Shown: in pieces, positions 575-29,877 of the stretch
How the letters are laid out: each line of letters opens with the position of its first letter
Position numbering within the stretch: the stretch's first letter is position 1
NCBI GenBank assembly: GCA_964647905.1
Contig: CAZYJR010000030.1
Span: 5,042-37,041, forward strand
Source: an uncultured Desulfobacterales bacterium
GTDB lineage: Bacteria; Desulfobacterota; DSM-4660; Desulfatiglandales; HGW-15
Direction of reading: 5' to 3'
DNA length: 32,000 bases
Position numbers and translations under genes: made by a program
The notes under the pieces: generated by a model
Seen by the model: only the letters and a program-made list of their open reading frames with translations
The model's database searches: none
What the model was told of the DNA's origin: nothing

Positions 575-617
575 CTCCTATCCCCCCGGCTATAGAGCTT
601 AGATAAATGAAAAAAAG

Positions 618-3698: not shown

Positions 3699-3754
3699 CT
3701 CAATGGGACCCTCACTATTCTAATGTTTAGACATATTATATGATTATGTATTTG

Positions 3755-3769
3755 ATACTAATTTAGTAT
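3755..3769. promoter_or_regulatory. Perfect dyad ATACTAA-T-TTAGTAT in the AT-rich gap between the XRE-cupin regulator and the PaaK-like gene; candidate operator
   Basis: 7-bp arms are exact reverse complements with a 1-nt spacer. The site is about 57 nt upstream of the PaaK-like start codon, inside a very AT-rich 110-nt intergenic region. Confidence 0.35.
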
Positions 3770-3808
3770 TAAGAATAGAGTGGTAGAAATAATATATTAG
3801 GTGAAGGC

Positions 3809-7090: not shown

Positions 7091-7162
7091 CTCGTTCCTC
7101 CTTGTCTGCTGTTCTCTTGCTTCTTATGTACGTTCTAGTGAAGCCTCCGCGTGAGGGGTTGC

Positions 7163-7633: not shown

Positions 7634-7674
7634 CTTGTTCCTCCGGTAAGAAAAGCCCGCTCTCGAGCCAGTGT

Positions 7675-8541: not shown

Positions 8542-8603
8542 GGGTTCCTCCTATTCTCTTTCATATCCGATTGGAGCGGCCGTGGAGGCCGCAGTCTTGC
8601 GGG

Positions 8604-9167
8604 CTAGTCACCCCAGCGCTTGAAGAGCCGGTGTTCTATCCCTAGGTAATCAAAGACCTTGCCTATGGTCTGGTCCAGTATGTCCTCGATTGTGCTGGGC
8701 CTGTGATAAAACGACGGCACAGGGGGGAGGATATGCGCCCCCAGCTCCGCGGCCAGGCTCATCAGGCGGAGGTGCCCGGCGTGGAGAGGGGTCTCTCTGA
8801 CCACCAGGACCAGCTTTCTCTTCTCCTTGAGCGTCACGTCTGCAGCCCGGATGAGCAGGTTGGTGGTGAAGGAGTTGGATATGCCGGAGAGACTCTTTAT
8901 GGTGCAGGGGGCCACCACCATGCCCTCGGTCATGAACGACCCGCTTGCAAGGGCTGCACCCACGTCCCGGTTGTCATAGACCACCGCGGCCATCCCGGCC
9001 ACCTCCTCCGGGCTGTACCGGGTCTCGATCTCGATGTTCCGCTTCCCGGCCTCGGAAAGGATCAAGTGGGTCTCCACATCGGTCTCTTTCAAATGCTCCA
9101 GGAGCCTCACTCCGTATATCACCCCGCTCGCCCCGGATATCCCCACCACCAGCCTTCGCGCCATCAC
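8604..9167 (-). CDS. ubiX: Flavin prenyltransferase UbiX (prenylated-FMN synthase for the UbiD-family enzyme)
   Basis: 187 aa, with RLVVGISGASGVIYGVRLLEHL...MVVAPCTIKSLSGISNSFTTNLLIRAADVTLKEKRKLVLVVRETPL. This is the canonical UbiX/Pad1 signature. Confidence 0.9.
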   Translation of the reverse strand: MMARRLVVGISGASGVIYGVRLLEHLKETDVETHLILSEAGKRNIEIETRYSPEEVAGMAAVVYDNRDVGAALASGSFMTEGMVVAPCTIKSLSGISNSFTTNLLIRAADVTLKEKRKLVLVVRETPLHAGHLRLMSLAAELGAHILPPVPSFYHRPSTIEDILDQTIGKVFDYLGIEHRLFKRWGD

Positions 9168-9179
9168 TTATTCCACCCT

Positions 9180-9830
9180 TCATCCATTGCGCCGCACCAC
9201 CTCCAGTATGTTGAATCCTCGCTCCTTGAGCGTCTCGTTCACCCGTTCCAGGCCTTCCTTGTCCAGGCGCAAAAGCAGCCGCCGCTTCCCGGTCTCGGGG
9301 TCCTTAAGGGTGAAGAGGCAATGAAGCCTCCCGCCTGCGGCGAATGCCGCCTCCACTATCTCCCGCACCATCTCCCCGTCGGGCCGATCGAGCTCCACTG
9401 TCAGCCCGGAGTAGCTCTCCGCCACACCCAGTATCTGGTAGAGGGAGTTGAATATGTCGAGATCCGAGACCGTCCCGACCAGCTTTTCCCCGTCCATGAC
9501 CGGGAAGAAGCTCCTGCCGAACTGCTTGCCCTGCTCCAGTGCGGCCTCCACGGTATCGTCCATGGAGAGGCAGACCGGCTTCCTGACCATCAGGTCCTTC
9601 ACCTTGACCCGCTCGTTGAAGAACTTCATCTCGTGGGGACTTTGCGTGGCCGTGACCGACGATGCCGCCTCGTTCAAGTCCTTGCGGGAGAGGATACCCC
9701 TGAGCCTGCCCTCGTCAACCACCGGGATGAACCTCTCCCTGATCTCGCCCAGGATCCGCAGGGCCTCGCTGGCCGGGGTGTCGCTGGTAATGGTGGCCGG
9801 GGACTTCTTCATCCAGTTCTTTATGAGCAT
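9180..9830 (-). CDS. Tandem CBS-domain protein with C-terminal ACT-like region; PpsC-like candidate (stimulatory protein 3 of phenylphosphate synthase)
   Basis: 217 aa (about 24 kDa) when started at MLIKNWMKK (9830). The longer track ORF (to 10100) would overlap the upstream gene with an Arg/Gly/Pro-rich, junk-like N-terminus. Two CBS repeats are visible (MKKSPATITSDTP...IPVVDEGRLRGILSRKDL and MVRKPVCLSMDDT...FPVMDGEKLVGTVSDLDI). Confidence 0.7.
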   Translation of the reverse strand: MLIKNWMKKSPATITSDTPASEALRILGEIRERFIPVVDEGRLRGILSRKDLNEAASSVTATQSPHEMKFFNERVKVKDLMVRKPVCLSMDDTVEAALEQGKQFGRSFFPVMDGEKLVGTVSDLDIFNSLYQILGVAESYSGLTVELDRPDGEMVREIVEAAFAAGGRLHCLFTLKDPETGKRRLLLRLDKEGLERVNETLKERGFNILEVVRRNG

Positions 9831-9895
9831 GGCGTTCTCCGTGAAATGAGGATTATGCCAGAAAACATTTCTCCGGGTAAAGCACTTCGGGGCTG

Positions 9896-11134
9896 TTATC
9901 CGGTGTCTTCCGCGGCCTTTGCTCCGAAGAGCTCCATGGCCGCGCTGATCACGGCCTCTCCGAAGGCCGGATCCTCCATGTTGGCGTCCACTTCCGAGAC
10001 CTTGATCTCCGGCCTCAGTAGGGCGCGAAGCTCGTTTACAAAGATCCGGTCCTCTGCGGGGTCGTGGGTGGGGTTGCCGGGCGCGTCCACGGACGACCAT
10101 CCCCTCGTGGGGATCACCACCCTCACCGGGCCCTTCGCCCTATTGAGCTTGTCCGCGAATACGGCGGCCACCTCTGAGAGCTCCTCGGGCGAGTGGCGGA
10201 TCCAGGTGCGGTAACGGTCCAGGTCGTACTTTCGCCGCTCCTTGTACTCCGGCTTGTACCTGGACTTGGCCGGCGTCATGTGATTCACGCTGCAGACGGA
10301 CACCACCTGGGGGATGCCCAGGCTCCCTGCGGTCTCCAGCCTGTTGGGGCCCGCGTCCCTCATGAATCCGTAGTGGTGCTCTCCCACACCTCCAGGGGCG
10401 AGATCCACCACCCCGTGGAAGAGGCCCTGGGCTATCATGTCCTCCATGGCCCTGTCCCCGATCCCTGCAGCGGAAAACCCTATCACTTGGAATCCTTGTG
10501 CTTCCAGGCCTTGCCGAACCGAGCTCGCGCATTTCTCGCACGGCCCCAACATGGTGAGCGCTATGCTTCGACCGGATTCGGAGCCGGGAGGGGCCGCCCG
10601 GCCTCTTATCATGCCCGCCGCCGCTCCCGCGCCCCGGTCGAGGACGTTTTTCAGCAGATCGGTCACCCCGGAGATCTCTATTACCGAGTGGAACAGGGCT
10701 ATGTCCCCGGTCCCTATGTACCGCGTGGAGAGGCCGGGGAGGGCGGCGGTCGATGAGATCATGAGCTTGGGGACCCCGAAGGGAAGGGCTCGCATCACCT
10801 CGGTGGCCATCAGGGTGCCCGTGGAGCCGCCCAGGCCCACCGCGCCGTGGATCCCGCCCTCGGCTTGGAGCCGCTTGGCAATGGCAGAGGCCCCTTGGAT
10901 GGTGATGTTGGTGATCCGCGAGCGCTCCCTGGAGGAGTGGATCTCCTCCAGGGAGCTCCCGCCGGCCGATGCCACCTCGGCCGGTCCCACGTCGGCCGAG
11001 GGATGCCCGTCCCCCCGCATGGAGAGGTCCATCAAGAGAGTCCCCAGGCCCAACGCCTCCAACCTCTCCCTGAGATACATGGTCTCCGGGCCCTTGGTGT
11101 CCATGGTGGAAAGGATCAGGACCGTATGCTCCAT
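9896..11134 (-). CDS. UPF0261 family protein (Tm-1-like ATP-binding domain), copy 1
   Basis: 412 aa. Family pattern: VLILSTMDTKGPE...GLGGSTGTLMATEVMRALPFGVPKLMISSTAA...TMLGPCEKC...GPVRVVIPTRGWSSVDAPGNPTHDP. It is embedded between the CoA ligase and the CBS protein. Confidence 0.7.
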   Translation of the reverse strand: MEHTVLILSTMDTKGPETMYLRERLEALGLGTLLMDLSMRGDGHPSADVGPAEVASAGGSSLEEIHSSRERSRITNITIQGASAIAKRLQAEGGIHGAVGLGGSTGTLMATEVMRALPFGVPKLMISSTAALPGLSTRYIGTGDIALFHSVIEISGVTDLLKNVLDRGAGAAAGMIRGRAAPPGSESGRSIALTMLGPCEKCASSVRQGLEAQGFQVIGFSAAGIGDRAMEDMIAQGLFHGVVDLAPGGVGEHHYGFMRDAGPNRLETAGSLGIPQVVSVCSVNHMTPAKSRYKPEYKERRKYDLDRYRTWIRHSPEELSEVAAVFADKLNRAKGPVRVVIPTRGWSSVDAPGNPTHDPAEDRIFVNELRALLRPEIKVSEVDANMEDPAFGEAVISAAMELFGAKAAEDTG

Positions 11135-11163
11135 TAGTCGGTGCTCCCTTCGGCTTTGCTCCC

Positions 11164-12819
11164 TCAGGATTGCTCGGCCTCTATCTTGGCCGCCATTTCC
11201 TTCTTGAGCGTCTCCTTGTTCACCTTGCCCGAGTCGCCCACGGCCGGGAACTCGTCCATTATCTCCAGGCGCTCCGGGAGCTTGAACTTGGCGAGCTTCT
11301 TGGCCTTGAGGAACTCCACCATCTCATCGAAGGTGAAGGTCTCCCCGGCCCTGGGGATCACACAGGCGCAGCACCGTTCGCCCATCTCCCTGTCCGGGTA
11401 GCCCACTATGGCCACTGACGAGACCTTGGGGTGCTCGTTCAGGAGCCCCTCTATCTCCGCGGGGTATATGTTCTGACCGCCCCGAATGATCATGTCCTTG
11501 GCCCGGCCCAGGATCCAGAGGCAGCCCTGGTCGAACTTGACGATATCCTCGGTGGTGGTCCAACCGTCGCTGTCGAACACCGTCGCGGTAAGCTCCTCGT
11601 CGCGGTAATAGCCGGCCGGTGCATGGGGCCCCCTGAAGTAGAGAATCCCCGGCTCCCCGTCAGGGACCGTATCGCCCTTTTCGTCGACCAGCCTCACCTT
11701 GTTCCCAGGGAGCATGCGGCCCACGGTTCTGCGGCGCAGCTCCTTGCTGTCCTCCACCCGGCATCCCGAGACCGAGCCCTTGTCCTGTGTGCCCAGGTCG
11801 CTGGTGATCACCGCCTGGAAGGCCTCCTCTGCCTCTTCGGCCACCTGGGGGGAGAGATAGCCGCCCGCCGAGCGGATGAAGCGGAGCGAGCTCAGGTCGT
11901 ACCTGGAGGGATCCGCTTCCAGCATCCTTATCAAGTGGGTCGGCACCACTCCGATGGCGGTCGCCCGCTCCTTTTCGATCAGGGAAAGCGCCCCTTCAGG
12001 GGTGAATTCCTCGAGCATCACGGTCTTGGCCCCGGCAAGGGGGGCGGCGAAGTAGGTAAGGGTGCCGGCGGCTCCGCCCGCATGGGGTGCGATCGCCATG
12101 GTGATGTCGTCCTTGTTCAGGCCCCAGATGTCCACCCTGGCCTTGGACGTGCAGACCCTGGGCGCGGTCGGCCATTCCACCAGCTTGGGAAGGCCCGTGG
12201 TGCCGCTGGTGGTGGTGAGCAGGGCGACGTTCCAGATGGCATCCAGCCTGCGCTCCGCCAGCACGGCCTCGTCCACCGGCTCGGCTGCGCGCTCATGGGC
12301 CATGGTGGTCAGGGAGTGGGTCCCCTCGGGCGCTCCTTGCGGCACCTTGTCATCGAAGAGAAAGATCCTTTCCAGATGGGAGAAGCGCTCCTGGAGCTCG
12401 CGGTACATCTCCAGGTAGTCGAACTTGCGGTATACATGTGGGATGACTACGGCTGAGGCCTCCGTCCTTTCCACCATGTACTCGAGCTCCCGCTCGCGCA
12501 GGTAGGGATAGACCGTGAGGGAGATCAGCCCGGCCCTCTCGGCCGCCACACGGGCCAGGAACCCGAAGACGCTGTTCGGCGACTGGATGATGATTCGGCT
12601 GAACTTGGGAAGGCCCATCTCCACCCAGGAGGCGGCAATGGCGTCCACCAGGCGTTTGGCCTCGGCCCAGGTGACCCTGTAGCGGGAGTCCACCAGGGCC
12701 TCGCGGTCGCCCATCTCCCGGGCGTTCCGGTCATAGAAGTCGTAGAAGAGCTCCTGGGTCCAGTGTCCGTCCCGGACGAACTCATCGACCATCTCCTGGG
12801 TATAGCGAATCGGTCTCAC
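11164..12819 (-). CDS. AMP-dependent aryl-acid CoA ligase (EntE/DhbE-like); candidate 4-hydroxybenzoate-CoA ligase
   Basis: 551 aa, GTG start with a GGAGG Shine-Dalgarno 6 nt upstream. It has the AMP-binding motif LLTTTSGTTGLPK and an EntE-like N-terminus (YTQEMVDEFVRDGHWTQELFYDFYDRNA). Substrate is inferred from context only. Confidence 0.8.
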   Translation of the reverse strand: MRPIRYTQEMVDEFVRDGHWTQELFYDFYDRNAREMGDREALVDSRYRVTWAEAKRLVDAIAASWVEMGLPKFSRIIIQSPNSVFGFLARVAAERAGLISLTVYPYLRERELEYMVERTEASAVVIPHVYRKFDYLEMYRELQERFSHLERIFLFDDKVPQGAPEGTHSLTTMAHERAAEPVDEAVLAERRLDAIWNVALLTTTSGTTGLPKLVEWPTAPRVCTSKARVDIWGLNKDDITMAIAPHAGGAAGTLTYFAAPLAGAKTVMLEEFTPEGALSLIEKERATAIGVVPTHLIRMLEADPSRYDLSSLRFIRSAGGYLSPQVAEEAEEAFQAVITSDLGTQDKGSVSGCRVEDSKELRRRTVGRMLPGNKVRLVDEKGDTVPDGEPGILYFRGPHAPAGYYRDEELTATVFDSDGWTTTEDIVKFDQGCLWILGRAKDMIIRGGQNIYPAEIEGLLNEHPKVSSVAIVGYPDREMGERCCACVIPRAGETFTFDEMVEFLKAKKLAKFKLPERLEIMDEFPAVGDSGKVNKETLKKEMAAKIEAEQS

Positions 12820-12842
12820 ATCGAACCTCCGTGCTTGAAAAG

Positions 12843-12871
12843 CCGCCGCCCGGCGGCAAACCGGGCGGCGG
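12843..12871 (-). terminator. Perfect 11-bp GC hairpin between the UbiD-like gene and the CoA-ligase gene, followed by CUUUUC; possible attenuator or mRNA-stabilising element
   Basis: CCGCCGCCCGG-7 nt-CCGGGCGGCGG read directly from the sequence. It sits 9 nt after the UbiD stop and about 20 nt before the ligase Shine-Dalgarno. Confidence 0.3.
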
Positions 12872-12880
12872 TCTAAAGGT

Positions 12881-14281
12881 TTAGAGCCCCAGCTCGGACC
12901 ACCTGGACTCCACTTTCTTCACCATGTCCGGGTCCAGCTCGATGGGAATGGGCTTCTTCTTCCACTCGTATGGAATGGTGGCGTCCATCAGCATGCGGCC
13001 GGTAATCTCCCGCGCGTCAATGGGCAGGGAAGGGTCGAGAGGGGTGGAGCGCCCGCGCTTTATCACCTGGCTGCGGTTCGGCTGGAACCGGAAGCTCAGG
13101 GCGTACATCACCCGGGGGATGTCCCACGGGTCTATGTCGTCGTCGACCGCAATCACGGTTTTAAGTCCGTAGGCGCCCATCTCCGTGGAGACGGCCGCGG
13201 TGAGCACCTGGTCCGTATGGCCCGGGTACATCTGCTTGAGCGAGATGATTGCCAGGAACCGGCCGGATCCCTCGGGCGGGCAGTAGACCGCCTGTATGCC
13301 CGGGATCTTCATGTCTTCCAGTTGCTGCCACAGGGTGGCCCCGTAGGTGAGGGCCATGGTCATGTGGGTGTCGGTAACCGCCCTTCCCACGGTGGTTCCC
13401 CAGAAGATGGGGTTGTTCCTGTAGGTGACGCATTTTACATCTATAAAGTTCCTGGGGTCGGTGCCCACGCCCGAGTAGTAGCCGGTGTACTCGCCGAACG
13501 GGCCCTCCTCCATGAACTTGTCCGCGTCCACCTCGCCCTCGACCACGATCTCGGCCGTGGCCGGGACCGGAAGATCGTTGGTCTCCGCCTTTACCACCTC
13601 GATGGGCCCCCCGCGAATGGTGCCTGCAAAGTCATACTCCGACTCGAACGCGGAGAGTCTGGAGGCCCCCATGAGAAAGAGCAGGGGATCGCAGCCCACC
13701 ACCGCGCAGACCGGCATGGGTTTGCCCATGGCCTGGTATTTCTTGAGCATGATATCCGCGTGCTTGCCCTTGATGAACTGGGTCCCCAGCTTGTCCTTTC
13801 CCAGGAGCTGGAGCCGGTAGGTCCCGAGATTGACCCAGCCGGTCTCCGGGTCCTTGCTCAGGACGAAGTGGGCCGTACCGAAGTACCTCCCCCCGTCCAT
13901 CGGGTAGAACTTGGGCACCGGAAACTTGTTGAGGTCCACCTGGTCGCCCATCATGATGTTTTCCTTGCAGGGCCCGGTGTCCACCATCTTGGGAGGGATC
14001 ATGGTCTCCCGCTTTTCCACCCACATCCTCATCAGGTCCACCAGGCTGGAGTCCTCGGGCATGCCCATGATCAGGGCCAGCCTGGCCGTGGAGGTGCAGA
14101 CACTGGTTATCACCGGCGAGTCGTAGCCTTTGACATTCTCGAAGAGCAGGGCCGGTCCCTGCCTCTCCTCGTTGATCTTTGCAATGTGGGAGAGCTCCAG
14201 GTCCCAGTCCACCTCCGCCTTGATGCGGTGGAGCATGCCCCTCTTTTCCGCCTCGTCAATGAAATCCCTCATGCTCTTCAT
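12881..14281 (-). CDS. UbiD-family (prFMN-dependent) decarboxylase/carboxylase; phenylphosphate carboxylase PpcA/B-like
   Basis: 466 aa with a typical UbiD fold sequence (MRDFIDEAEKRGMLHRIKAEVDWDLELSHI...GPFGEYTGYYS...). It lies directly downstream of ppsAB and in the same operon as ubiX. Confidence 0.85.
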   Translation of the reverse strand: MKSMRDFIDEAEKRGMLHRIKAEVDWDLELSHIAKINEERQGPALLFENVKGYDSPVITSVCTSTARLALIMGMPEDSSLVDLMRMWVEKRETMIPPKMVDTGPCKENIMMGDQVDLNKFPVPKFYPMDGGRYFGTAHFVLSKDPETGWVNLGTYRLQLLGKDKLGTQFIKGKHADIMLKKYQAMGKPMPVCAVVGCDPLLFLMGASRLSAFESEYDFAGTIRGGPIEVVKAETNDLPVPATAEIVVEGEVDADKFMEEGPFGEYTGYYSGVGTDPRNFIDVKCVTYRNNPIFWGTTVGRAVTDTHMTMALTYGATLWQQLEDMKIPGIQAVYCPPEGSGRFLAIISLKQMYPGHTDQVLTAAVSTEMGAYGLKTVIAVDDDIDPWDIPRVMYALSFRFQPNRSQVIKRGRSTPLDPSLPIDAREITGRMLMDATIPYEWKKKPIPIELDPDMVKKVESRWSELGL

Positions 14282-14329
14282 AAACCCTTCTCCCTCCCTT
14301 TTTGAATTCTGTTTAACAATGGTTGCCCC

Positions 14330-15412
14330 TTATTTGATCTTCTTGCCGCTGACCAGCCCTGCCACAATGTGCTCAAGGGCGGATTTCTTTGGTTTGGATA
14401 CGGGCTCCCTCTGCCTGTGGCCCCAGACCGTCTCGGGCCGGCTCTGGAGGATCAAGACCCTGCCTGCAGCCGGCATGTCCTTGTCTATGGCCCACTCGAT
14501 GTCCATGGGTTTTCCGTAGTGCTTCTCTATGAGCTTGCCCACCCGGGCGAGCTCCACCACGTCCTCGTCGATCATGCACTGGTTGTTTCGCCTCTCCTGT
14601 GGGATCTCGTGCCTCTCCACCTCGTTGGTCTCCGGGTTGGCCGTGTACAGGCACTCCTTGGGTGAGATCTTGCGCTTTATTATCTCCAGGGTGACCTTGC
14701 TGACCACGAAGTGGTCCGGGGTGCACTCGCCGCTCACCACGCTCTCGCCGAACCCCCAGTTGGCGTCTATCACTATGGTGGAGGGGTCCCCGGTGGCGGG
14801 ATTGATGGTGAACATCACCCCCGCGGTCCAGGAGTTGGCCATCTTCTGGATGCCCACCGAGATGCCCACCGCATCGTGGGGGAAACCCATTCGCGCCCGG
14901 TAGGCGATGGCCCGGGGAGTGAACAGGCTGGACCAGCATTTGCGAACGTGCTCCAGGACGTTGTCCACCCCCCTGACCCACAGGAAGGTCTCCTGCTGGC
15001 CGGCGAAGCTCGCATCCGGCAGGTCCTCGGCCGTGGCGCTGGATCTCACCGCCACGGGTACGGCGGGGACGTGGCACTGCTCGGAGAGCCTCCTGTAGAA
15101 CTCCCCTATGTAGTCCTCTATCTCTATACTGACCGGCGCCCCCTCTATGAGCTCCCTCACCTCCCTGCTCGCCTTCTCTCCCGTATTTGTGTCCTCCGCC
15201 CTGACTCCTCCCAGGATCCTGTTGATCTCCTCGCGGATGCCGGTTTCCTTCAGGAACCTGTAGTAGGTCTCGGTGGTGACGGCGAACCCCGGGGGGACGG
15301 GGATGCCGGCCTTGAGGAGCTCTCCCAGGCTGGCGTTCTTCCCTCCCACCCGCGGGACGTCGTTCATGTCGCATTCCTGGAACCAGAGCACGTAATTCAT
15401 GCGCTCTTTCAT
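14330..15412 (-). CDS. ppsB: Phenylphosphate synthase beta subunit-like (PEP synthase N-terminal ATP-grasp / PPDK_N domain protein)
   Basis: 360 aa. PPDK_N pattern: VPRVGGKNASLGELLKAGIPVPPGFAVTTETYYRFL...VAVRSSATAEDLPDASFAGQQETFL. Its start is 6 nt after the ppsA stop. Confidence 0.8.
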   Translation of the reverse strand: MKERMNYVLWFQECDMNDVPRVGGKNASLGELLKAGIPVPPGFAVTTETYYRFLKETGIREEINRILGGVRAEDTNTGEKASREVRELIEGAPVSIEIEDYIGEFYRRLSEQCHVPAVPVAVRSSATAEDLPDASFAGQQETFLWVRGVDNVLEHVRKCWSSLFTPRAIAYRARMGFPHDAVGISVGIQKMANSWTAGVMFTINPATGDPSTIVIDANWGFGESVVSGECTPDHFVVSKVTLEIIKRKISPKECLYTANPETNEVERHEIPQERRNNQCMIDEDVVELARVGKLIEKHYGKPMDIEWAIDKDMPAAGRVLILQSRPETVWGHRQREPVSKPKKSALEHIVAGLVSGKKIK

Positions 15413-15418
15413 TGGATA

Positions 15419-17257
15419 CTACCTCTCGATCTGTACATGGCCGGTGTTGCCGTCCACCTTGATATGCATGCCCGTCTTGATGATCGAGGTGGCGTGGCCC
15501 GTCCCCACCACCGCGGGCATACCGTACTCGCGGCACACAATGGCCGCATGGCACATGATGCCGCCCACATCGGTGACAGCGGCCCTGATCTTCTGGAAGG
15601 CGGGCGCCCATGACGGCGACGTGGTGGGCGCCACCAGGATCTCGCCGTCCTTTAGCTGATCCACTTCCTTTACGGACCTGCACACCCTGGCCACGCCTTC
15701 CACCGAGCCCGGGGAGCCCGCAAAGCCGGTGAGCTCGGTGACCTTGTCCGGGTCTCCGATCTCCCGGACCTTGGCCCAGGCGGACATGCTCTCGTTGGTG
15801 ACCCCCCAGAGGACTATGGTGAAAGGCTCGGTTATGGTTTCCGGAGGGGTCCCTACGGCTGGCGGCGGTGACCATTGCCTGAACTTCTCGTAGACGCCCT
15901 TGCGCCACTCGATCTCCTTGGGCCAGTAAGAGGGCCCCCTTGGCTTGCTCCCGGTCGCCCAGGCGGTCACAACGTCCCACAAGGCGTCCTTGATTTCCGA
16001 GCGCTTGAAGAACCAGACGTCCTCTATGTCCTTGATGAACTCAAAGTCCTTGAGGATCGCTGCCACCTCCCTGACCTTGTTCCAGAAAATGGAGTGGAAC
16101 CAGTGCTCCACGTAAAAGAGGTGGTTCTCCACGTAGGGGAAGACCAGCTCGGAGGTCCCCTGGAGCTGGTCGAATGTCTGCTTGTCCTCCTCGGTCGAGA
16201 GCAGCTCCCTGTACTCCTTCCGTATCCTCTCCCGCTCCTCCTTGATCCTTTCCACCGGCCGATCTATGGACTGGCCCTGCTGTATTTTTTCCACGTAGAC
16301 CCGAATGGAGTTCATGGGGACGTTGAGTTCGTCCAGCCAGCAGGCGTCATGGTGGTACCACCCCGTCCCTGTGGAGACATAGAACCACGGGTTCTTCGCC
16401 TTTTCCCACGCCTGCACCCAGGTCCTGCCGTTATCCGACTTTTCCAGGTCCGCCAGGGTGTCCCGGACGTCGCGGCTCTCCAGGATCTTTCCCGCCAGGT
16501 CCAGGTCCACGGCGAGGCGGGCGAGCTTCTTCAGCTCCTCGTCCGGCTGGTAGATGATCACATCGATTCCGCCCACCATCTGGGTGATGCGCTGGAGCGG
16601 GATATCCGGGAAGGCCTTGGTGCAGAAGTCGACAAAGGTGACATAAGACGCATAGCCCAGGTTCAGGAACTCGAAGTGGTACTGCCAGCAGAGGATACCC
16701 ATGTCCAGGAGCTTGTCGTAGGCCCGGAGGAGCTCGTAGCCCTTGGACTTGCCCAGTCCTTCGGTAACCACGGACATGTCCTCCATCTCGGGCAGGCGGG
16801 GGATCTCCAGGGCTTCGAGCTCCTTGATCAGCTCCTTCATCTTTTCTTCCCACTTGTCGTGGAGCTCGTCCCAGTGCTCGTAATAGTAACCCGCACGCTC
16901 CATGAAAAGCGGCACCCGCTCTTCCACCTGCTTGGGATCGGAGACAGGGACTGGGGTGATGTAGACGTTTCCGTTGATGATGCGGTGATCCACGCCCAGG
17001 GCCGGCGGGACCATGAAGATCCTGGTATTGAACTGGCTCAGCGCCAGGAACCAGGCCTCGTCCCAGATGATGTCGAACGGATACATGGGCTCCGGGTAAT
17101 GGAGGCCGTCATTGAACCAGAACATGTTGTTCTCGTACTCTTCGCGCTCCTTGTCCTCTGTGGTGAACTGGTAGTGGTAGGGGTACATCCTCTCCCACCC
17201 CTCGGTCCCCGGGATGGTCTCCACCTCGTGAGGGTTGGGAAACTTGGGCTCGGCCAT
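15419..17257 (-). CDS. ppsA: Phenylphosphate synthase alpha subunit-like (substrate-binding domain plus C-terminal phospho-histidine swivel domain), copy 1
   Basis: 612 aa from MAEPKF (17257), which has an AGGGAGGTG Shine-Dalgarno; the track ORF extends to 17413. The C-terminal PEP-utilising mobile domain carries the catalytic His context TDVGGIMCHAAIVCREYGMPAVVG. Confidence 0.8.
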   Translation of the reverse strand: MAEPKFPNPHEVETIPGTEGWERMYPYHYQFTTEDKEREEYENNMFWFNDGLHYPEPMYPFDIIWDEAWFLALSQFNTRIFMVPPALGVDHRIINGNVYITPVPVSDPKQVEERVPLFMERAGYYYEHWDELHDKWEEKMKELIKELEALEIPRLPEMEDMSVVTEGLGKSKGYELLRAYDKLLDMGILCWQYHFEFLNLGYASYVTFVDFCTKAFPDIPLQRITQMVGGIDVIIYQPDEELKKLARLAVDLDLAGKILESRDVRDTLADLEKSDNGRTWVQAWEKAKNPWFYVSTGTGWYHHDACWLDELNVPMNSIRVYVEKIQQGQSIDRPVERIKEERERIRKEYRELLSTEEDKQTFDQLQGTSELVFPYVENHLFYVEHWFHSIFWNKVREVAAILKDFEFIKDIEDVWFFKRSEIKDALWDVVTAWATGSKPRGPSYWPKEIEWRKGVYEKFRQWSPPPAVGTPPETITEPFTIVLWGVTNESMSAWAKVREIGDPDKVTELTGFAGSPGSVEGVARVCRSVKEVDQLKDGEILVAPTTSPSWAPAFQKIRAAVTDVGGIMCHAAIVCREYGMPAVVGTGHATSIIKTGMHIKVDGNTGHVQIER

Positions 17258-17516
17258 GCTACACCTCCCTTGATTGTGGTTACCCGTGATTATGGGACGC
17301 CTTTGTTGCTCGAAAGACCTTCTCGAGCACAGGGCGTCACCTGCATACACCCACTCGGGGCGCCGGGCCCCGAGGCGGAACTCTCGGTCAAGGGTTGCGG
17401 CTTGGCCTCTCAAGCATTGCTTTCCAAGGGTGTTCTCTGCTCAGGTACGTTCAGGAGCGCGGGAGAGCTTGCGAGGCTTTGGCTCTTTTCTTGAAGCTTT
17501 CTTAAAGAATTGTCAA

Positions 17517-18587: not shown

Positions 18588-18713
18588 TCAGGGAGCCAGC
18601 ACTTCGAGCCATTCCTCCTTTTCCAGAAAGGCCAGTTCAGTGGAGCGATGTATGCCGTATTTCTCCCTGAGGTATTTGGGGATGGTGACTTGGCCGCGTT
18701 CGGTTATTCGCAT
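18588..18713 (-). CDS. 41-aa AbrB/SpoVT-type (MazE/VapB-like swapped-hairpin) DNA-binding mini-protein, with no toxin partner
   Basis: Absent from the ORF track (too short). Hand translation: MRITERGQVTIPKYLREKYGIHRSTELAFLEKEEWLEVLAP. The GQVTIPK..R..YGI signature of the SpoVT-AbrB domain is present. A strong AAAGGAGG Shine-Dalgarno lies 6 nt upstream of the ATG. Confidence 0.5.
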   Translation of the reverse strand: MRITERGQVTIPKYLREKYGIHRSTELAFLEKEEWLEVLAP

Positions 18714-18754: not shown

Positions 18755-18886
18755 TTAGGAGTATGACTCAATACATCACAGGGCTTTCTTCAAGTGTGGC
18801 CGGCATGATAAGTTGAGAAAAGCAGAATGACGAGCAACTGTGATCGGCCCGGGTTTAACAGGCCGAGTAGAGAGGAGCCTTTCCGG

Positions 18887-20152
18887 ATGACGCTTGAGGT
18901 CCATAACACCATGAGCAGGAGGCTGGAGCCCTTCGAGAGCCGGGAGCGAGGCGTGGTCAAGCTATTCACCTGCGGGCCTTCGGTTTACAGGCCTCCTCAT
19001 GTGGGCAACCACCGGACGTTCCTTTTTGAAGACATCCTCCAGAGGTACCTGGAGCATCTGGGATACCGGGTGGATCGGGTCATCAACCTGACCGACGTGG
19101 AGGACAAGGCCATAGAAGAGGCCTCCAAGAAAGGGGTGAGCATAGGGGATCTGACCCGGCCTGTGGAGGACCGATTCAGGCGGGAGGCCGGCCTTTTGGG
19201 GCTCGAGCTTCCCGGGTACCTCCCGCGGTCTTCGACCTGCGTCGGCCAAGCGGTTGAGATCATCAAGGCCCTGCTGGAGCGCGGCTGTGCCTACCGGCAC
19301 GGCGGGGACATATTCTTTGATCCCTTGAAGTTCAAGGGGTTCGGGCGACTCTACGGCCTGGACATGAGCAGGTGGCCCAAGAAGAGGCGGCGGTTTCGAA
19401 AGGACACCTATCCGGGCAGGCGGTGGAACCTCGGAGACTTCATATTGTGGCACGGATACCGGCCCAAGAGAGACGGGGCCTTCTACTGGGAGACCGAGCT
19501 GGGCAGGGGGCGCCCGGCCTGGAACATCCAGGACCCGGCCATCATAACCGAGCATCTGGGATGGAGGATAGACGTTCACTGCGGCGGGGTGGACAACCTA
19601 TACCGTCACCATGACTACACAATAGCCGTGGTCGAGGCCCTGAGCGGGGAGACCCTGGCCCCTTACTGGCTCCATGGCGAGCACGTGCTGGTGGAGGGGG
19701 CCAAGATGTCCAAGAGCAAGGGGAACATAGTGTACTTGGAGGATGTGCTGGAGCGGGGCTTTGAGGCCGAGCATATCCGGTTCCACCTGATCTGCCGGCA
19801 TTACCGGGAAAAGCTGAATCTGACCTGGGAGCGGGTGGAGGCATCGGCCCGAAAGCTCGATCGCTTCAGGGAAACGGTAAAGGCCTTGGGAATAGGGCCC
19901 CTGGGCCCCGGCTCGGTCGAGGAGGACTCTTCGGGCGAAGCGGACCCGGAGCTTGTCTCCCGATTCGAGCAAAGGATGGACCGCGACCTGGATGTGGCAG
20001 GGGCCTGGGATGCGGTGGAGCAGAGGCTCGGGGAGCTTCTGGCGGCCAAAAGAGACGGCCACCTGAATCCGCCCGAGCTGGAATCGGTGAGGAGGGCCCT
20101 GGCACGCATCGACCGGGTCCTCGGCGTCATTCATCCATTGCCGCCGCCTTGA
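18887..20152 (+). CDS. Class-I aminoacyl-tRNA-synthetase-like protein, cysteinyl-tRNA synthetase paralogue (divergent, shortened)
   Basis: 422 aa from MTLEVHNT (GAGAGGAG Shine-Dalgarno upstream; the track ORF starts at 18827). It is collinear with CysRS: LFTCGPSVYRPPHVGNHRT (HIGH region), GRPAWNIQD, VHCGGVDNLYRHHDYT, and KMSKSKGN (KMSKS). See findings for the altered residues. Confidence 0.75.
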   Translation: MTLEVHNTMSRRLEPFESRERGVVKLFTCGPSVYRPPHVGNHRTFLFEDILQRYLEHLGYRVDRVINLTDVEDKAIEEASKKGVSIGDLTRPVEDRFRREAGLLGLELPGYLPRSSTCVGQAVEIIKALLERGCAYRHGGDIFFDPLKFKGFGRLYGLDMSRWPKKRRRFRKDTYPGRRWNLGDFILWHGYRPKRDGAFYWETELGRGRPAWNIQDPAIITEHLGWRIDVHCGGVDNLYRHHDYTIAVVEALSGETLAPYWLHGEHVLVEGAKMSKSKGNIVYLEDVLERGFEAEHIRFHLICRHYREKLNLTWERVEASARKLDRFRETVKALGIGPLGPGSVEEDSSGEADPELVSRFEQRMDRDLDVAGAWDAVEQRLGELLAAKRDGHLNPPELESVRRALARIDRVLGVIHPLPPP

Positions 20153-21212
20153 TCGCCTCCCGCAGGGCCTTCTGATCCAGGGGAGGCGGCTGTGCGCCGG
20201 GTCTTGCCTCAAGCTCTATGGCCCCCTCCGGGCAGCCGGTCGAGCAGACACCGCATCCTATGCAGCGGTCGAGATCCGATTCAGGAGGCCCGCCGTTCAT
20301 CTCGAGAAGGGCGCCGGCCGGGCACCGCTCCACGCAGGTTCCGCACCCGGTGCAGAGATCCCGGTCCCAGACCGGGATGAACCCCGAGTTCATGGCCAAG
20401 CCGGGCTTGGAATCGGCGAGGGCGGTCTTCAGGAGCACACAGTGGCAGGGACAGCAGTTGCAAAGGAAGTCGATCTTCTGCCTGTTCAGCGTGGCATGGA
20501 CCAGCCCGGCCTCTTCGGCGCGTCTGACTATGTCCTTGGCTTCTTCCTTACCGACCCGGCGTCCCATGCCTCGGTCTATTACGAACTGCGCGCCCGCTCC
20601 CAGTTGGAGGCATACCTCGTCCGGGTTGCCGCAATGGTCGCTCTCGTCCAGCAGCCGGGCCTGGTGCCTGCAGTAGCAGGTGGCCACGGCCAGGGGGTCG
20701 CACTCCTCGATATATGAAATGACCTGGTCATAGGTGTGGATGGTGCTGCCCGCCTGGATCTTCCTGCCGACAGGTATGACCCTGGAGGTGGGAAATTTTT
20801 CTCTCGGCGGTCCGGTGCGGGCGTCAAAGGCTTCTTTGTACTCCTTGACCAGTTTGGCGATCCTCCGGTCCCTGTCAGTGGCCGTACCCCGCATGAACTG
20901 ATACTCGAATATCCCGGGGATCAGGGGCAGGGTGGCGTAAAGGGTCTCTCCTTCCTTTGCAATGGAAAAGCAGAGCCCCTTTTCAGCCATGCCCTCCAGC
21001 AAGACCCGGACCTCGCTCTCCTCCCTTCCTGTCTCCTCGGCTATTCGTGCCGCAGTATTGAGCCCCCTGGGCATATTATTGAAGACATCGGCCTCGTCCA
21101 GGGTGAAGAGCTCCTCTGCCAGCGCGTAGAACTCCGGTATGTCCATGCCCCTGTACCTGCCGCCTCTTTGGGCCAGCGTCTCGCAGAGCCGTTTGTAGAC
21201 TTCTCGAGCCAT
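20127..21212 (-). CDS. Cys-rich 4Fe-4S dicluster domain protein with an N-terminal winged-helix-like region
   Basis: 361 aa. Two ferredoxin motifs (CTGCGTCVERCP, CIGCGVCSTGCP) plus extra Cys clusters (CYCRHQ...HCGNPDEVC, LCNCCPCHC). Its start is 3 nt after the UPF0261-2 stop. Confidence 0.8.
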   Translation of the reverse strand: MAREVYKRLCETLAQRGGRYRGMDIPEFYALAEELFTLDEADVFNNMPRGLNTAARIAEETGREESEVRVLLEGMAEKGLCFSIAKEGETLYATLPLIPGIFEYQFMRGTATDRDRRIAKLVKEYKEAFDARTGPPREKFPTSRVIPVGRKIQAGSTIHTYDQVISYIEECDPLAVATCYCRHQARLLDESDHCGNPDEVCLQLGAGAQFVIDRGMGRRVGKEEAKDIVRRAEEAGLVHATLNRQKIDFLCNCCPCHCVLLKTALADSKPGLAMNSGFIPVWDRDLCTGCGTCVERCPAGALLEMNGGPPESDLDRCIGCGVCSTGCPEGAIELEARPGAQPPPLDQKALREAIKAAAMDE

Positions 21213-22565: not shown

Positions 22566-23006
22566 GTGGATTCACCGGGGATACCCGTTACCGACCGCAT
22601 AGTGATCCCGGAGAATGAAATCGAGGAGCACTTTGTGAGGGCGTCAGGCCCTGGCGGTCAGAACGTCAACCGGGTGGCCACGGCCGTCCAGCTTAGGTTC
22701 GACGCCGCCCGCTCCCCCTCTCTGCCGGATGACGTGCGCCGGAGACTGATGCGCCTGGCGGGGCGGAGGCTCACCAAGGACGGCATTGTAGTGATAGACG
22801 CTCGCAGGCACAGGACACAGGAGCAGAACAGGAAGGACGCCCTGGATCGCCTAGTGGCCCTGATTCGCAAGGCCTCGGAGCCGCCCCGCCCCAGGAAGCC
22901 GACCAAGCCCACACGGGCCTCCCGCAAGCGCCGCCTGGCCGGCAAGACCAAGAGAGGGAGGCTCAAGCGCCTGAGGGCGCCTGTTGAGGGGCCGGACGAC
23001 GCCTGA
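22566..23006 (+). CDS. arfB: Alternative ribosome-rescue factor ArfB (YaeJ), GGQ-type peptidyl-tRNA hydrolase
   Basis: 146 aa, GTG start with a GAAGGAGG Shine-Dalgarno. It has the RF-1 domain with SGPGGQNVNRVATAV and a strongly basic C-terminal tail (RPRKPTKPTRASRKRRLAGKTKRGRLKR). Confidence 0.85.
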   Translation: MDSPGIPVTDRIVIPENEIEEHFVRASGPGGQNVNRVATAVQLRFDAARSPSLPDDVRRRLMRLAGRRLTKDGIVVIDARRHRTQEQNRKDALDRLVALIRKASEPPRPRKPTKPTRASRKRRLAGKTKRGRLKRLRAPVEGPDDA

Positions 23007-23060
23007 CAAAGGCTCTTGTTTCCGGTACCTCAATGACGGCGATTGAGGGTGAGTAGACGC

Positions 23061-23069
23061 CCCGGAATC
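23061..23069. repeat. Left copy of the 9-bp direct repeat CCCGGAATC flanking the toxin-antitoxin islet
   Basis: The exact 9-mer is also present at 24224-24232. Both copies lie in the intergenic DNA bounding the low-GC islet. Confidence 0.25.
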
Positions 23070-23090
23070 GGGAGAGATCATGTTGCCGCG

Positions 23091-23807
23091 CTAGGCCGTC
23101 AGGCTGTTTGCTCGGCCTGAGAAAATATCTTCCGCCATTAGGCTCAAGTCGGCGAAAAAGAGTTCATCATCGGGCTTCGGCTCGATCCACTTGATGGCTG
23201 AGAGTTCCTGCCTTGGAAAGGATTTCAAAAGGTCGTAAAGAACGACCGGATCAAGCCCCGCCTCCTTGGACGAGGCCTCACGGAGAATAGCGGCCCAGTT
23301 GAATCTTTTTGTTTTTGCCAATGCCCATAAGTCAATGACATCCTTAGGTTCTATTCGATATAAGGCAGAGAGCTTATTGGACAAGATATTTCGCCAACTG
23401 TCAATTCGCCCGAGAATGTCATTCCACTCAATATCTCCATAGTGAGGAGCGATGTCATTAACCAGATCAATCCTGAGAACAATATTTCCATGTTCAGGGG
23501 AGTCCTGCTCAACAAAGAGCTGGACATAATCCTCGTACCTCATAATCCTGTCGGTAAGCAAGGTAAACGGCTCGTGTCTGCTCTCTTTTTCCAACTCCTC
23601 ATACAATCGCTCAGACCATTTGGGAAACTCAGGGTCACTATTCACAAAAAGATCAAGGTCATCCGAATAGCGGACAGGGTTATAATGTCTGCTTATTGCG
23701 GTACCACCGGTTAGATAAAAGGGAGCGCTGATACGTTTCACGATGGAGAGGATTCCATCCTGAAAGGGATAAAGGCTCTCCTCGTAATATCCGCCGTATT
23801 CGCTCAT
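23091..23807 (-). CDS. Nucleotidyltransferase AbiEii/AbiGii-family toxin (type IV toxin-antitoxin, DUF1814-like)
   Basis: 238 aa. NTase motif FYLTGGTAISRHY...RYSDDLDLFV, with size and layout of the short AbiEii family. Confidence 0.75.
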   Translation of the reverse strand: MSEYGGYYEESLYPFQDGILSIVKRISAPFYLTGGTAISRHYNPVRYSDDLDLFVNSDPEFPKWSERLYEELEKESRHEPFTLLTDRIMRYEDYVQLFVEQDSPEHGNIVLRIDLVNDIAPHYGDIEWNDILGRIDSWRNILSNKLSALYRIEPKDVIDLWALAKTKRFNWAAILREASSKEAGLDPVVLYDLLKSFPRQELSAIKWIEPKPDDELFFADLSLMAEDIFSGRANSLTA

Positions 23808-24066
23808 AACGCTTTCTTTGCCCCGGGAAACGAAGCTTTGCGATTCTTTCCGGAGTAAGGAGCCTTGTAACCCTCTCCTTACCCATGAGTTCCAGGATAT
23901 CGTGCCAAGGGAGCCTTTCCAAGGCTCTTATGAAAGTCCTCTCTTGATCAAACGGGCCTTCTTTTTCACGCTCTCCGAGCAGGACCTCGAGCAGCCTGTC
24001 CTCCCGGACATTATAGTCCCAACATAGGGATTGTAGGATTCTGCGTTTGCGGTCGGGGGTGATCAT
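23680..24066 (-). CDS. Small upstream ORF, putative cognate antitoxin or regulator of the AbiEii-like toxin (family not recognised)
   Basis: 128-aa ORF immediately upstream on the same strand, with the same low-GC composition. Its last 128 nt overlap the toxin ORF in another frame, so its 3' end is uncertain. Confidence 0.45.
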   Translation of the reverse strand: MITPDRKRRILQSLCWDYNVREDRLLEVLLGEREKEGPFDQERTFIRALERLPWHDILELMGKERVTRLLTPERIAKLRFPGQRKRYERIRRILRGEPLSLSGWNPLHRETYQRSLLSNRWYRNKQTL

Positions 24067-27581: not shown

Positions 27582-29791
27582 TCAGCGGGTCAACGGGGTC
27601 TCTCCGGAGAAGTCCTTCACCTTGTAGACCTTGCACTGGTAGGTCCTGAGCGGCCAGGAGCCCAGGGCCTCGTCGCAGGTCTCTTCGGTGCTCGAGGTGC
27701 AGACGTTGATGTTGGACAGCCACACCCCGTGCAGCCACGGCTCCTCTCCCGGCATCTCCGGGTACCACCACCCGTGCTGCCCGTGGACCACCCTGGGATC
27801 CAGGTCTTGGTCCAGGATCGCCTTCTGCATCACTCTTCCGTGCTTGGTCTCTATCCAGACCCAATCGCCGTCGGCTATGCCGAACTCGGCCGCCGTGTCC
27901 GGGTGGATCTGCATCCTGGCCCAGGGATAACGCTTCCTCAGGGTCTCCACCTGCCGGTGCTCGGAGTGGAAGAACGGGTGGAAGCGCCCGCCCGTAATCA
28001 GCACCAGCGGGTAGTCGCTCGCCAGCTCGGGGGTACGGGAGAAGCTCTCCGGCGGTTCGTGGTATCGGGGGAGGGGGTCGTAGCCCAGGGTCTCCATAAC
28101 GGTGGAGTAGAGCTCGATCTTGCCGGTTGGAGTCCCGAATCCGGTCTTTTCATACTTCTTGTACTCGTATTTTTCAGGAGCCCATTTCCCCATTTTCACC
28201 AGCTCTTCGAATGTCTTGCCCATGGGGGAGAGCCTGTAGTCGTAGTAGTCCTCTACGGTCTCCCAGGGCCAGTACTCCTCCTGTCCCAGCCTGATGCCCA
28301 GGCCCCGCCAGAAGTCGAAGTCGTTTCTCCTGTCGTACATCCCGGGTATGGACGCGGGAAGTGCAGCTTCCCCGGCCCTTATCACCGGTGTGGTGTTGTG
28401 GTAGTTCCACAGGAAGGAGCGCTCCAGCCACAAGGCGCTCGGGAGCACGTAGTCCGCCATTTGAGCGCTCGGCGTCATGAAGTAGTCGACCACCACGTAG
28501 AGATCCAGGCTCTTCAGGGCCTTGTGCACCAGCTTGGTATCGGGGATGGTCACCATTGGGTTGGAGGAAAGGGTGATCAAGGCCCGCACCGGGTAGGGGT
28601 CGGAGTAGGCGATGGCCTTATAGAGCGAAGGCGCCGGGGCCATGCAGGTGTAGCCGAACATGTCGCAGCGTTTGCCCCATACCTTCTCCACGTTGCTCTG
28701 TACCAGCTCATAGCCCGGCCATGTATAGAGCCTGAACTGGTTGCCCAGGATCTTCTTCCTCTGCTCCTTGGGCAGGGCCTCGGCCAGCTCTATCTCGTGC
28801 TCCGTGATGAAGGGGGCGGCCCCATGAGCTCTTCTCCGCCCTTTACGTCCACGTTGCCCACTATGGCCGATATGATGTGCCTGGCGGCCAAGGCCCCGTA
28901 GGAGTTGGGTTGATGGGCCACGCCCATCCCCTCCATGGCGCAGGACGGCGTCTCTGTGGCGAACATCCTGGCCGCCTTTACTATCTGCTCGCCCGGGACC
29001 CACGTGATCTCCGAGGCCTTGTCCACCGGGTATTCGGCCGCCCGCTCAGCCAGCTCCTCGAACCCGTGGCACCAGTTGGTCACAAAGTCCCGGTCGTAGA
29101 GTTTCTCCTCGATGATCACGTTGATCATGGACATGAGTAGGGCGCAGTCGGTCCCGGGCCGGATCCTCAGCCACAGGTCCGCGGCCTCTGCGGATTCCGA
29201 CTTCCTGGGGTCCACCACGATCAGCTTGGTCCCTCTCTCCTTTGCCGCCATCACCCCCTCCCATATGGTCTGGTGAGTGTGGGGCGGGTTCCGGCCGATC
29301 AGCATGACGCACCTGGTGCTGCCCAGCTTCTCCGTGTTCATCCAATAGGGCCACCAGCCGTAAAGGGTGGTGGCCACCACCGCTGAGTTGCCGTGGCAGA
29401 TCTGGGCTTGGCCGCACTGGTTGGGGCTGCCGAAAAGGTTCAGGAACCTCGAGTTGAGCTCTTCGTAGGTCCTGCTGGTACCTGCGGTCACGCCCAGGGT
29501 TTCAGCGCCGTAGCGGTCCTTGAGCTCCTGGAGCTTCCACGCGATCTCGTCCAGGGCCTCGTCCCAGGTTATGCGCTGCCACTCGTTCGCCCCGCGGTCA
29601 CCCCGTCTCTTCAGCGGGTAGTTCAGACGGCCCGGGTGATAGAACCTCTCCAGGTCCGAGCAGTACTTGCGGGGGCAGGCCTTGATGGGCGATCTCTCGA
29701 TCTTGACCAAGCGGTTGTCTTCCACTTCCACTGCCAAGCGGCACCTGGGCTTGCACCAGAAACAGATGGAGTGCTTCACTTCCTTGGGCAT
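27582..29791 (-). pseudogene. Cytoplasmic Mo/W-bis-PGD oxidoreductase, acetylene-hydratase-like subfamily, interrupted by a single -1 frameshift (or assembly indel) at about 28812-28823
   Basis: Two overlapping track ORFs (28790-29851 and 27582-29003) together make one collinear protein of about 736 aa. The N-terminal 4Fe-4S motif is CFWCKPRC...C, and there is no twin-arginine signal. The conserved ICHGNSAV segment holds a candidate metal-ligand Cys. The join lies at ...GNVDVKGGEELMG|(A/P)APFITEHEIELAEALPKEQ, within the G4/C5 run ATGGGGCCGCCCCCTTC. Start chosen at MPKEVKH (29791) with a GAGGAGGTG Shine-Dalgarno. Confidence 0.75.
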
Positions 29792-29877
29792 TACATCACC
29801 TCCTCGGGTAGGGTTTATAAGCGGGAGCTCCATCTCCCGGGCTGAGGTCAAGCTCTCACATGCCGTTGCCGCTGATC

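Follow-up and report, generated by a model that had tools for sequence, protein, structure and literature searches.

A putative ligase from a cysteinyl-tRNA synthetase-derived family with an altered metal site and no anticodon-binding domain

Paralogues of aminoacyl-tRNA synthetases have repeatedly proved to do unexpected chemistry, as MshC, Glu-Q-RS, EpmA and CysRS* illustrate. In MshC, the zinc ion is held by Cys43, Cys231 and His256 only, and the amino group of the substrate is contacted by the Gly44 carbonyl, Thr46 and Thr83 (PMC9736012). CysRS* provides a precedent for charging that is independent of the anticodon and specific for the acceptor stem (PMC5389517), while the strongest identity elements of tRNA-Cys itself are the anticodon and U73 (PMC9976931). 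Here we describe a further cysteinyl-tRNA synthetase (CysRS)-derived protein, encoded on a 32,000-nucleotide stretch of an uncultured Desulfobacterales genome (assembly GCA_964647905.1, contig CAZYJR010000030.1, positions 5,042 to 37,041 of the forward strand), which we call the window. The gene occupies window positions 18887-20152 (+) as an intact open reading frame (ORF), stop codon included, and encodes a paralogue of 421 amino acids (P0001). Its product is very probably an active, non-housekeeping ligase of an uncharacterised CysRS-derived family, for which literature searches found no describing paper, and it probably attaches a small amino acid to an acceptor other than that of CysRS.

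The host assembly (3.99 Mb, 95% complete) holds two other CysRS-like genes. One, a canonical cysS, scores 539 bits and has both the DALR_2 and the CysS_C domain. The other encodes a 795-residue fusion of a pyridoxal phosphate-dependent cysteine-synthase-type domain with a full CysRS body (contig C10, L002:520-2907). The protein studied here is therefore not the housekeeping CysRS; by sequence criteria it is the third CysRS-like copy in its host, not a working CysRS, and should not be annotated as cysS. Five other family-positive genomes each carry a full-length cysS (520-572 bits), six further positives from a sample of 301 genomes each have at least one more CysRS-like gene, and in all another CysRS is present in 12 of the 12 family-positive genomes examined. 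On the cysS model (TIGR00435) the protein scores 269.6 bits, under the NCBI curated cut-off of 340, with an alignment that stops near position 400 of 466; the scores of four further members of the family (260-316 bits) also lie under this cut-off. The MshC model (TIGR03447) gives 178.2 bits versus a cut-off of 485. The first-pass annotation, made from the letters of the sequence, had taken the gene for something other than the housekeeping CysRS and had suggested looking for a separate canonical cysS and building a profile alignment and phylogeny. Both checks bear it out: the gene is not the only CysRS of its genome, and the low profile score goes with a separate clade (support 100).

Some features of the fusion copy are recorded here for their own sake. 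Its HIGH (TIAQ) and KMSKS (EEAES) motifs are degenerate, its zinc site and anticodon domain are kept, and a rhodanese gene follows it (L002:2911-3444). In the phylum sample, many open frames of ∼780-800 amino acids match the CysRS profile.

The active site of the protein combines conserved chemistry with a rebuilt pocket. Residue correspondence was taken from a HMMER alignment to E. coli CysRS (1LI5), invariance was read from the family alignment (A1), and the specificity of each feature was judged position by position over 150 representatives. Residues 29-41 (18971-19009, +) contain the kept metal ligand Cys29 (Cys28 of E. coli CysRS), the α-amino contacts Gly30 and Ser32, and the HIGH-type motif HVGN (38-41), all invariant in A1; the KMSKS loop (residues 273-277; 19703-19717, +) is intact. 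WNIQD (residues 212-216; 19520-19534, +) stands in place of WHIEC, with Asp216 at the position of Cys209, and RHHDYT (residues 240-245; 19604-19621, +) stands in place of PHHENE, with His241 (His234) kept and Thr at the position of Glu238, such that HHENE of the E. coli enzyme reads HHDYT at residues 241-245. Relative to the CysRS pocket the changes are Cys209 to Asp, His206 to Asn, Glu208 to Gln, PHHENE to RHHDY and Glu238 to Thr. Across the family H-x-G-N, KMSKS, Cys29, Gly30, Ser32, Thr69, Trp212 and His241 are invariant and the third ligand is always Asp (Asp216). Asn213, Gln215, Asp216, Arg240, Asp243 and Tyr244 are both invariant and specific to the family, as is the CP1 loop (residues 158-190). 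The ligand assignments, HVGN and KMSKS had all been proposed in the first-pass annotation, and the HMMER alignment confirms them; the accompanying claim of a gapless match to the catalytic core needs correcting in CP1, where there are a few short gaps.

These features differ in what they say about function. H-x-G-N and the Cys of DIH-CGG-x-DN are common to many full-length proteins that have WHIEC, PHHENE and an anticodon domain, and four such proteins pass the cysS model at 456-500 bits. Since both features also occur in genuine full-length CysRS, they are inherited and no sign of a new function. HVGN, which had been offered as a mark of an altered enzyme, is on this comparison an inheritance from a large clade of genuine CysRS. 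The claim that two of four zinc ligands are changed survives in part. The Cys209 to Asp replacement is robust; Glu238, however, is not a universal ligand, because the zinc of MshC is bound by Cys/Cys/His alone (PMC9736012), and the robust change at the metal site is therefore that of one ligand, Cys to Asp.

The roles of the invariant active-site residues are taken from the MshC and CysRS structures (PMC9736012), in which MshC Cys43, Gly44 and Thr46 correspond to Cys29, Gly30 and Ser32 of the family. As the equivalents of Cys29, His241, Gly30, Ser32 and Thr69 are invariant, the substrate should still be an α-amino acid, and the invariance of the ATP-site and α-amino-binding residues makes an adenylate-forming ligase, as first annotated, a reasonable reading. 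A Cys/Asp/His set can still hold a metal, and comparable sites accommodate a thiolate in farnesyltransferase and, in some alcohol dehydrogenases, an alkoxide; cysteine as the substrate is thus neither proved nor excluded. We infer a change of amino acid, of acceptor or of both.

The second rebuilt element is the CP1 loop (residues 158-190; 19358-19456, +), which is strongly basic and aromatic and is conserved throughout the family. It occupies the position of the ‘MSGA’ element, which is said to read the first acceptor-stem base pair (PMC5389517). Among its invariant residues are Trp163, Pro164, Phe170, Asp173, Thr174, Tyr175, Gly177, Arg179, Trp180 and Asn181. The net charge of the loop is +6 in the family versus -2 in CysRS, and the median isoelectric point (pI) is 8.9 versus 5.9 for the same region of CysRS. 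Constraint has shifted as well: in the family CP1 ranks among the top two domains for conservation (entropy 0.89), whereas in canonical CysRS (1.95) it varies as much as the remaining core does. The first-pass annotation had described a very basic insertion here; the basic stretch is real, but the rebuilt loop is only a few residues longer than its CysRS counterpart and is no true insertion. In an AlphaFold2 model of the protein (predicted local distance difference test score, pLDDT, 89.8; predicted template modelling score 0.91) residues 161-180 reach a pLDDT of only 55-62 despite their invariance, as would be expected of a loop that becomes ordered on a large partner.

Beyond the catalytic half, the chain ends early. 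The C-terminal helical bundle (residues 331-416; 19877-20134, +; helices 354-412 in the model) brings it to its end, with no α/β anticodon-binding domain beyond. A Pfam scan of the protein found the class I (C) catalytic domain tRNA-synt_1e (232 bits) and neither DALR_2 nor CysS_C, both of which are matched in the canonical CysRS of the same genome; the anticodon-binding domain (PF23493) is likewise unmatched in the protein and present in the canonical copy. The predicted loss of this domain is thus upheld, both by the missing CysS_C match and by the early end of the cysS-model alignment. The expected shortfall of 40-50 residues fits E. coli CysRS (461 amino acids, 40 longer), but not the host's own CysRS (484 amino acids, 63 longer). 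Since the anticodon and U73 are the strongest identity elements and the anticodon domain is gone, canonical recognition of tRNA-Cys is not possible. Of the domains of the family the helical bundle varies most (entropy 2.41); relative to the N-terminal Rossmann half its variability is ∼2.0-fold, versus ∼1.5-fold in CysRS. In Foldseek searches the model matches CysRS at template modelling (TM) scores of 0.82-0.84 and MshC structures at 0.79-0.81. As modelled, the protein keeps the CysRS fold through the Rossmann core, CP1, the stem-contact fold and the helical bundle.

The family to which this protein belongs is large and unevenly spread. A word-indexed protein search gave over 4000 matches with E ≤ 0.001; the best 120 of these are 55-77% identical to the query (77% being the best match among those listed), are ∼415 amino acids long and come from Desulfobacterota and archaeal bins. 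Their source names are ‘cysteinyl-tRNA synthetase’ or ‘class I tRNA ligase family protein’. Two peptide patterns alone find a relative in at least 545 species genomes, of which the best 80 are mainly from Syntrophobacteraceae, Desulfobacterales and Desulfobulbaceae and also include Spirochaetota, Nitrospiraceae and a bin labelled Thermoplasmata. Identity between bacterial and archaeal members is 55-60%, and some six representatives remain of the family when it is clustered at 50%. Of 301 genomes sampled evenly from the phylum of the window, only 7 have a true member (>500 bits), and none of the same family or order does; from this patchy occurrence the gene was probably acquired horizontally. 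Family forms fused into proteins of more than 737 amino acids were not found, which is weak evidence, and all plasmid matches were ordinary cysS at ≤36% identity, with no plasmid-borne copy of the family among them. One Desulfohalobiaceae bin (L033, L057) holds two family copies in a single genome. Cultured hosts of an orthologue include Desulfoferrobacter suflitae DRH4 (P0046, L016) and Desulfurivibrio sp. C05AmB (L061).

Trees were built with FastTree on 144 sequences and with IQ-TREE on 49, unrooted and with no MshC sequence included. In both, the family forms one clade (support 100 in the Shimodaira-Hasegawa-like approximate likelihood ratio test; stem ∼0.5) that branches from CysRS lineages of the H-x-G-N type. 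Its sister (support 96) is P0150, a protein that lacks the anticodon domain and has a canonical pocket, followed by P0143, P0146 and P0166. Because the trees are unrooted the order of the losses can only be suggested, the simplest reading being that the anticodon domain was lost first and that the pocket changed later. The protein from the window carries the family signature, namely FTCGPS, H-x-G-N, the CP1 loop, WN(I/V)QD, CGG-x-DN-x-x-RHHDY, KMSKS, a length of ∼415 amino acids and a position inside the clade. The marks that define the family are WN(I/V)QD, RHHDY and the near-invariant, charge-reversed CP1 loop. The present analysis adds four points: the HIGN ancestry, the place in the tree beside other lineages without an anticodon domain, the shift of charge and constraint in CP1, and a link of the sister clade to exporters, to which we return below.

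How might such an enzyme work? Beyond adenylate formation, the mechanism is one that we infer. ATP and a small α-amino acid, most simply still cysteine or else a near-isosteric polar one, would bind at the re-tuned Cys/Asp/His metal site. An aminoacyl-adenylate would form, and the aminoacyl group would then be passed to an acceptor held on the basic CP1 loop, with the anticodon unread. By analogy with CysRS* and YadB/Glu-Q-RS, the preferred acceptor would be an RNA 3′ end, either a tRNA acceptor stem or another RNA. Anticodon-independent aminoacylation of such an end is our tentative first choice, short of probable, and is favoured over an MshC-like ligase. Bacterial and archaeal copies of the gene are solitary, with surroundings that differ greatly, and their distribution is patchy, which suggests an acceptor that is universal. 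A few independent neighbours with roles in RNA or translation may be counted for an RNA acceptor: a hibernation factor, a TlyA-like methyltransferase (4-nucleotide overlap), IF-1 and a PIN ribonuclease. In an unlikely variant of the same idea, the Cys/Asp/His site would select another small polar amino acid (hydroxy-, amino- or phospho-) that is loaded on an RNA 3′ end via the acceptor end alone. If true, such non-cysteine charging of RNA would be a previously unknown RNA-aminoacylation activity common to anaerobic bacteria and archaea.

Several observations weigh against an RNA acceptor. In the host, just a single tRNA-Cys (GCA, U73) and a single tRNA-Sec are seen, both of them ordinary, and no linked tRNA was seen in 80 loci covering 1.07 Mb, which hold only two unrelated tRNAs. 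The helical bundle, which contacts the tRNA body in CysRS, is relatively relaxed in the family. ABC-2 exporters beside the sister lineages and in two family genomes would fit an exported or membrane product better than RNA, and the Trp/Arg/Lys-rich CP1 loop would be as well suited to an anionic lipid surface as to RNA.

These observations lead to the principal alternative, a tRNA-independent ligase in the manner of MshC, which we consider possible if somewhat doubtful. Here the adenylate of cysteine or a similar amino acid would react with an amine or hydroxyl group, whether on a small molecule, on a sugar phosphate or on an anionic lipid of the membrane. The product would be a cysteinyl conjugate, for example a thiol of low molecular weight or a component of the envelope, and might then be exported. 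Domain architecture and length match those of MshC, the folds superimpose at the TM scores given above, and both the relaxed helical bundle and the aromatic as well as basic character of CP1 would suit such an acceptor. The exporter link also counts in its favour: in three of three representatives of the neighbouring clade without an anticodon domain (P0143, P0146 and P0166) the gene directly follows a DrrA/DrrB-type ABC-2 exporter pair (L092:4281-7242, L094:3252-6227 and L095:3263-6218), and a NodIJ-like ABC-2 exporter lies directly 3′ of the family gene at L033, L057 and L035. Yet those last three loci represent only two of ∼75 family genomes, and a search of the host genome for an orthologue of the exporter returned only generic ABC-2 pairs. 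Thiol-related neighbours do occur (an OsmC-hydrolase fusion and DinB_2 in the family, thioredoxin and GNAT beside sister forms), although sporadically. On the other side, no genes for acceptor biosynthesis travel with the gene in 76 loci, and a lone, horizontally spread gene would need an acceptor that every recipient already makes. The score of 178 bits against a cut-off of 485 on the MshC model and the lost zinc triad of MshC also count against this alternative, and a pI shifted to ∼9 is unusual for a soluble small-molecule enzyme.

Two further explanations carry less weight. A back-up CysRS that still makes Cys-tRNA(Cys), tuned to another metal or to scarce zinc in sulfidic habitats and with a basic CP1 that compensates for the lost anticodon domain, is quite unlikely. 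The Cys/Asp/His site could still bind a thiolate, as is generally known of zinc sites, the hosts are sulfide-exposed anaerobes, and metal-transport genes lie near some copies (CNNM/CorC, a cation diffusion facilitator transporter and DUF364), but no metal-responsive element was found upstream of the gene. Zur-regulated CysRS paralogues are known in proteobacteria, but they retain the zinc ligands (PMC2770081), and the reader of the anticodon, which with U73 dominates tRNA-Cys identity (PMC9976931), is gone. CP1 and the pocket are invariant in the family and unlike those of every CysRS compared, and only seven of the 301 phylum genomes have the gene. It is more unlikely still that the protein aminoacylates another protein, as the LysRS paralogue EpmA does with EF-P, or is a non-catalytic regulator. 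Synthetase paralogues without anticodon domains do act on proteins or as regulators (PMC9437257), and small unannotated ORFs abut the gene in some genomes. However, no conserved protein partner appears in the family loci, and the invariance of all catalytic motifs speaks against a dead enzyme; the fusion copy of the host, by contrast, has lost HIGH and KMSKS. Aminoacylation of an RNA end remains the reading that we prefer.

The gene itself is well delimited. A Shine-Dalgarno-like, AGGAG-containing sequence (GAGAGGAG; 18870-18877, +) lies 9 nucleotides 5′ of the ATG at 18887, and in the family alignment the N-termini of other members align with a start at this ATG. An upstream ATG at 18827 was rejected as the start, as it would add 20 residues found in no relative. 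At the 3′ end the gene overlaps a convergent gene for an Fe-S (ferredoxin-domain) protein (20127-21212, -) by 26 nucleotides, as had been annotated. A short ORF (18588-18713, -) lies within the 259-nucleotide gap that separates the gene from a LysR gene. A scan for terminators and promoters gave nothing informative, an Rfam scan of the window found no riboswitch, T-box or other element, and PADLOC returned no defence-system match.

The gene lies downstream of that LysR regulator and between two gene groups in the window. On one side, window positions 4727-17413 (-) hold a cluster typical of anaerobic phenol and 4-hydroxybenzoate catabolism, with phenylphosphate-synthase-like phosphoenolpyruvate (PEP)-utilising and PPDK_N proteins, UbiD/UbiX-type proteins, an AMP-binding CoA ligase, UPF0261 and CBS proteins, and a three-subunit reductase of the molybdenum hydroxylase type that resembles 4-hydroxybenzoyl-CoA reductase. 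On the other side are the ferredoxin-domain protein, UPF0261, an AbiEii toxin, a second LysR, and PEP-utilising and molybdopterin enzymes. This aromatic-catabolic setting had been pointed out in the first-pass annotation. Because the neighbourhoods of 76 relatives differ widely, it shows no functional link to aromatic catabolism, and the gene should not be assigned to the surrounding phenol pathway. Clustering of the neighbours over the 76 family loci gave no conserved partner gene and one lineage-specific block only, in ∼23 loci of the Syntrophobacteraceae type (CNNM/CorC, a hibernation factor with a cold-shock domain and the OsmC-hydrolase fusion). Other neighbours are unrelated: radical SAM/SPASM pairs, the PIN ribonuclease, the TlyA-like methyltransferase, HMG-CoA-lyase-like genes, response regulators, IF-1 and RidA. 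Near the gene of the closest relative (77% identical) lie a copy of the Fe-S gene, 84% identical, and a gene of the UbiX type. The Fe-S gene is retained at no other locus, and its presence there is therefore read as shared ancestry; a functional link with the local Fe-S gene was rejected, as only this closest relative keeps it.

Some details of these loci stand apart from the argument. The copies at L033 and L057 are each preceded by a small ORF (with a DinB_2 match in L057) and followed by the ABC-2 exporter, with 4-nucleotide overlaps. In the window, two ORFs in different frames (27582-29003 and 28790-29851, within 27582-29851, -) overlap by 214 nucleotides and both have molybdopterin oxidoreductase domains; a frameshift, a pseudogene or an assembly error is possible. 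The GC content falls to 49% at 23001-24000, around the AbiEii-type toxin gene (23091-23807), between flanks of 58-65%, and is also low at 1-4000; these stretches may be the borders of an acquired island.

The family is large, with members in at least 545 species genomes and thousands more proteins from metagenomes; all catalytic motifs are kept and the specificity site is rebuilt. Once its substrates were found, the range of reactions known from synthetase-derived enzymes would grow by a new one. Databases list the family as CysRS or as a generic class I ligase, and an error frequent in the annotation of sulfate reducers, syntrophs and sediment archaea would be put right as well.

Set beside known systems, the protein is closest in fold to canonical CysRS of the H-x-G-N type (TIGR00435; PDB 8QHP, 1LI5/1U0B), from which it keeps the structure through the helical bundle, H-x-G-N, CGG-x-DN, KMSKS, the equivalents of Cys28, His234 and Trp205, and the α-amino contacts. 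Unlike these enzymes it has Asp for Cys209, a charge-reversed CP1 and no anticodon domain, scores below the cut-off, and always comes in addition to one or two other copies. MshC, the cysteine:GlcN-Ins ligase of mycothiol synthesis (TIGR03447; PDB 3C8Z, 8HFM), is likewise derived from CysRS, is ∼410 amino acids long and has no anticodon domain, and it shares adenylate chemistry (predicted in our protein) and Gly/Thr(Ser)/Thr contacts to the α-amino group. It has its own Cys/Cys/His triad, however, where the family has Cys/Asp/His, and the hosts of the family are not Actinobacteria. With its sub-threshold score and Asp as the middle zinc ligand the protein was rejected as an MshC, and the likeness noted by the first-pass annotation holds for architecture only.

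CysRS* of Desulfobacterales (PMC5389517) is also a second cysS copy, in related bacteria, with no anticodon domain and an altered CP1. It lies downstream of selC* and selB*, however, and its CP1 reads PTVS (PMC5389517), whereas the protein described here has a W-P-K-K-R-R-R loop and a changed metal site. No selB-like or elongation-factor-like neighbour was found in the window or in the 76 family loci, and the gene upstream is the LysR gene. ARAGORN found in the host genome one tRNA-Cys(GCA) with G1:C72 and U73 and one tRNA-Sec with G73; it found no selC*-type tRNA-Cys(UCA) with A1:U72, though 8/4 tRNAs may escape the program and the completeness of the assembly is 95%. Without selB*/selC* context or an odd tRNA-Cys and with a different CP1, the protein was rejected as CysRS* in the sense of Mukai. 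A selenium link as a general rule was rejected too, since in one complete genome with a family member no selD exceeds the cut-off. YadB/Glu-Q-RS, a paralogue of GluRS that glutamylates the queuosine of tRNA-Asp, is a stand-alone class I enzyme that has no anticodon domain and acts on tRNA (PMC9437257). It comes from another synthetase lineage and nothing in our protein points to a modified-base acceptor, so that it serves as a working analogy only. Nearest in the tree are P0150, P0143, P0146 and P0166, which share a length of ∼405-413 amino acids, a pI of 9.7-10.3 and basic CP1 loops; P0143 is a second copy beside a full-length CysRS in its 1.1-Mb genome. They differ from the family in that the Cys209 ligand is kept, that WHIEC and HHENE are intact in some (P0166 has WNVQC and HHENT), that three of the four pass the cysS cut-off, and that the trio P0143, P0146 and P0166 is coupled to DrrAB-type exporters.

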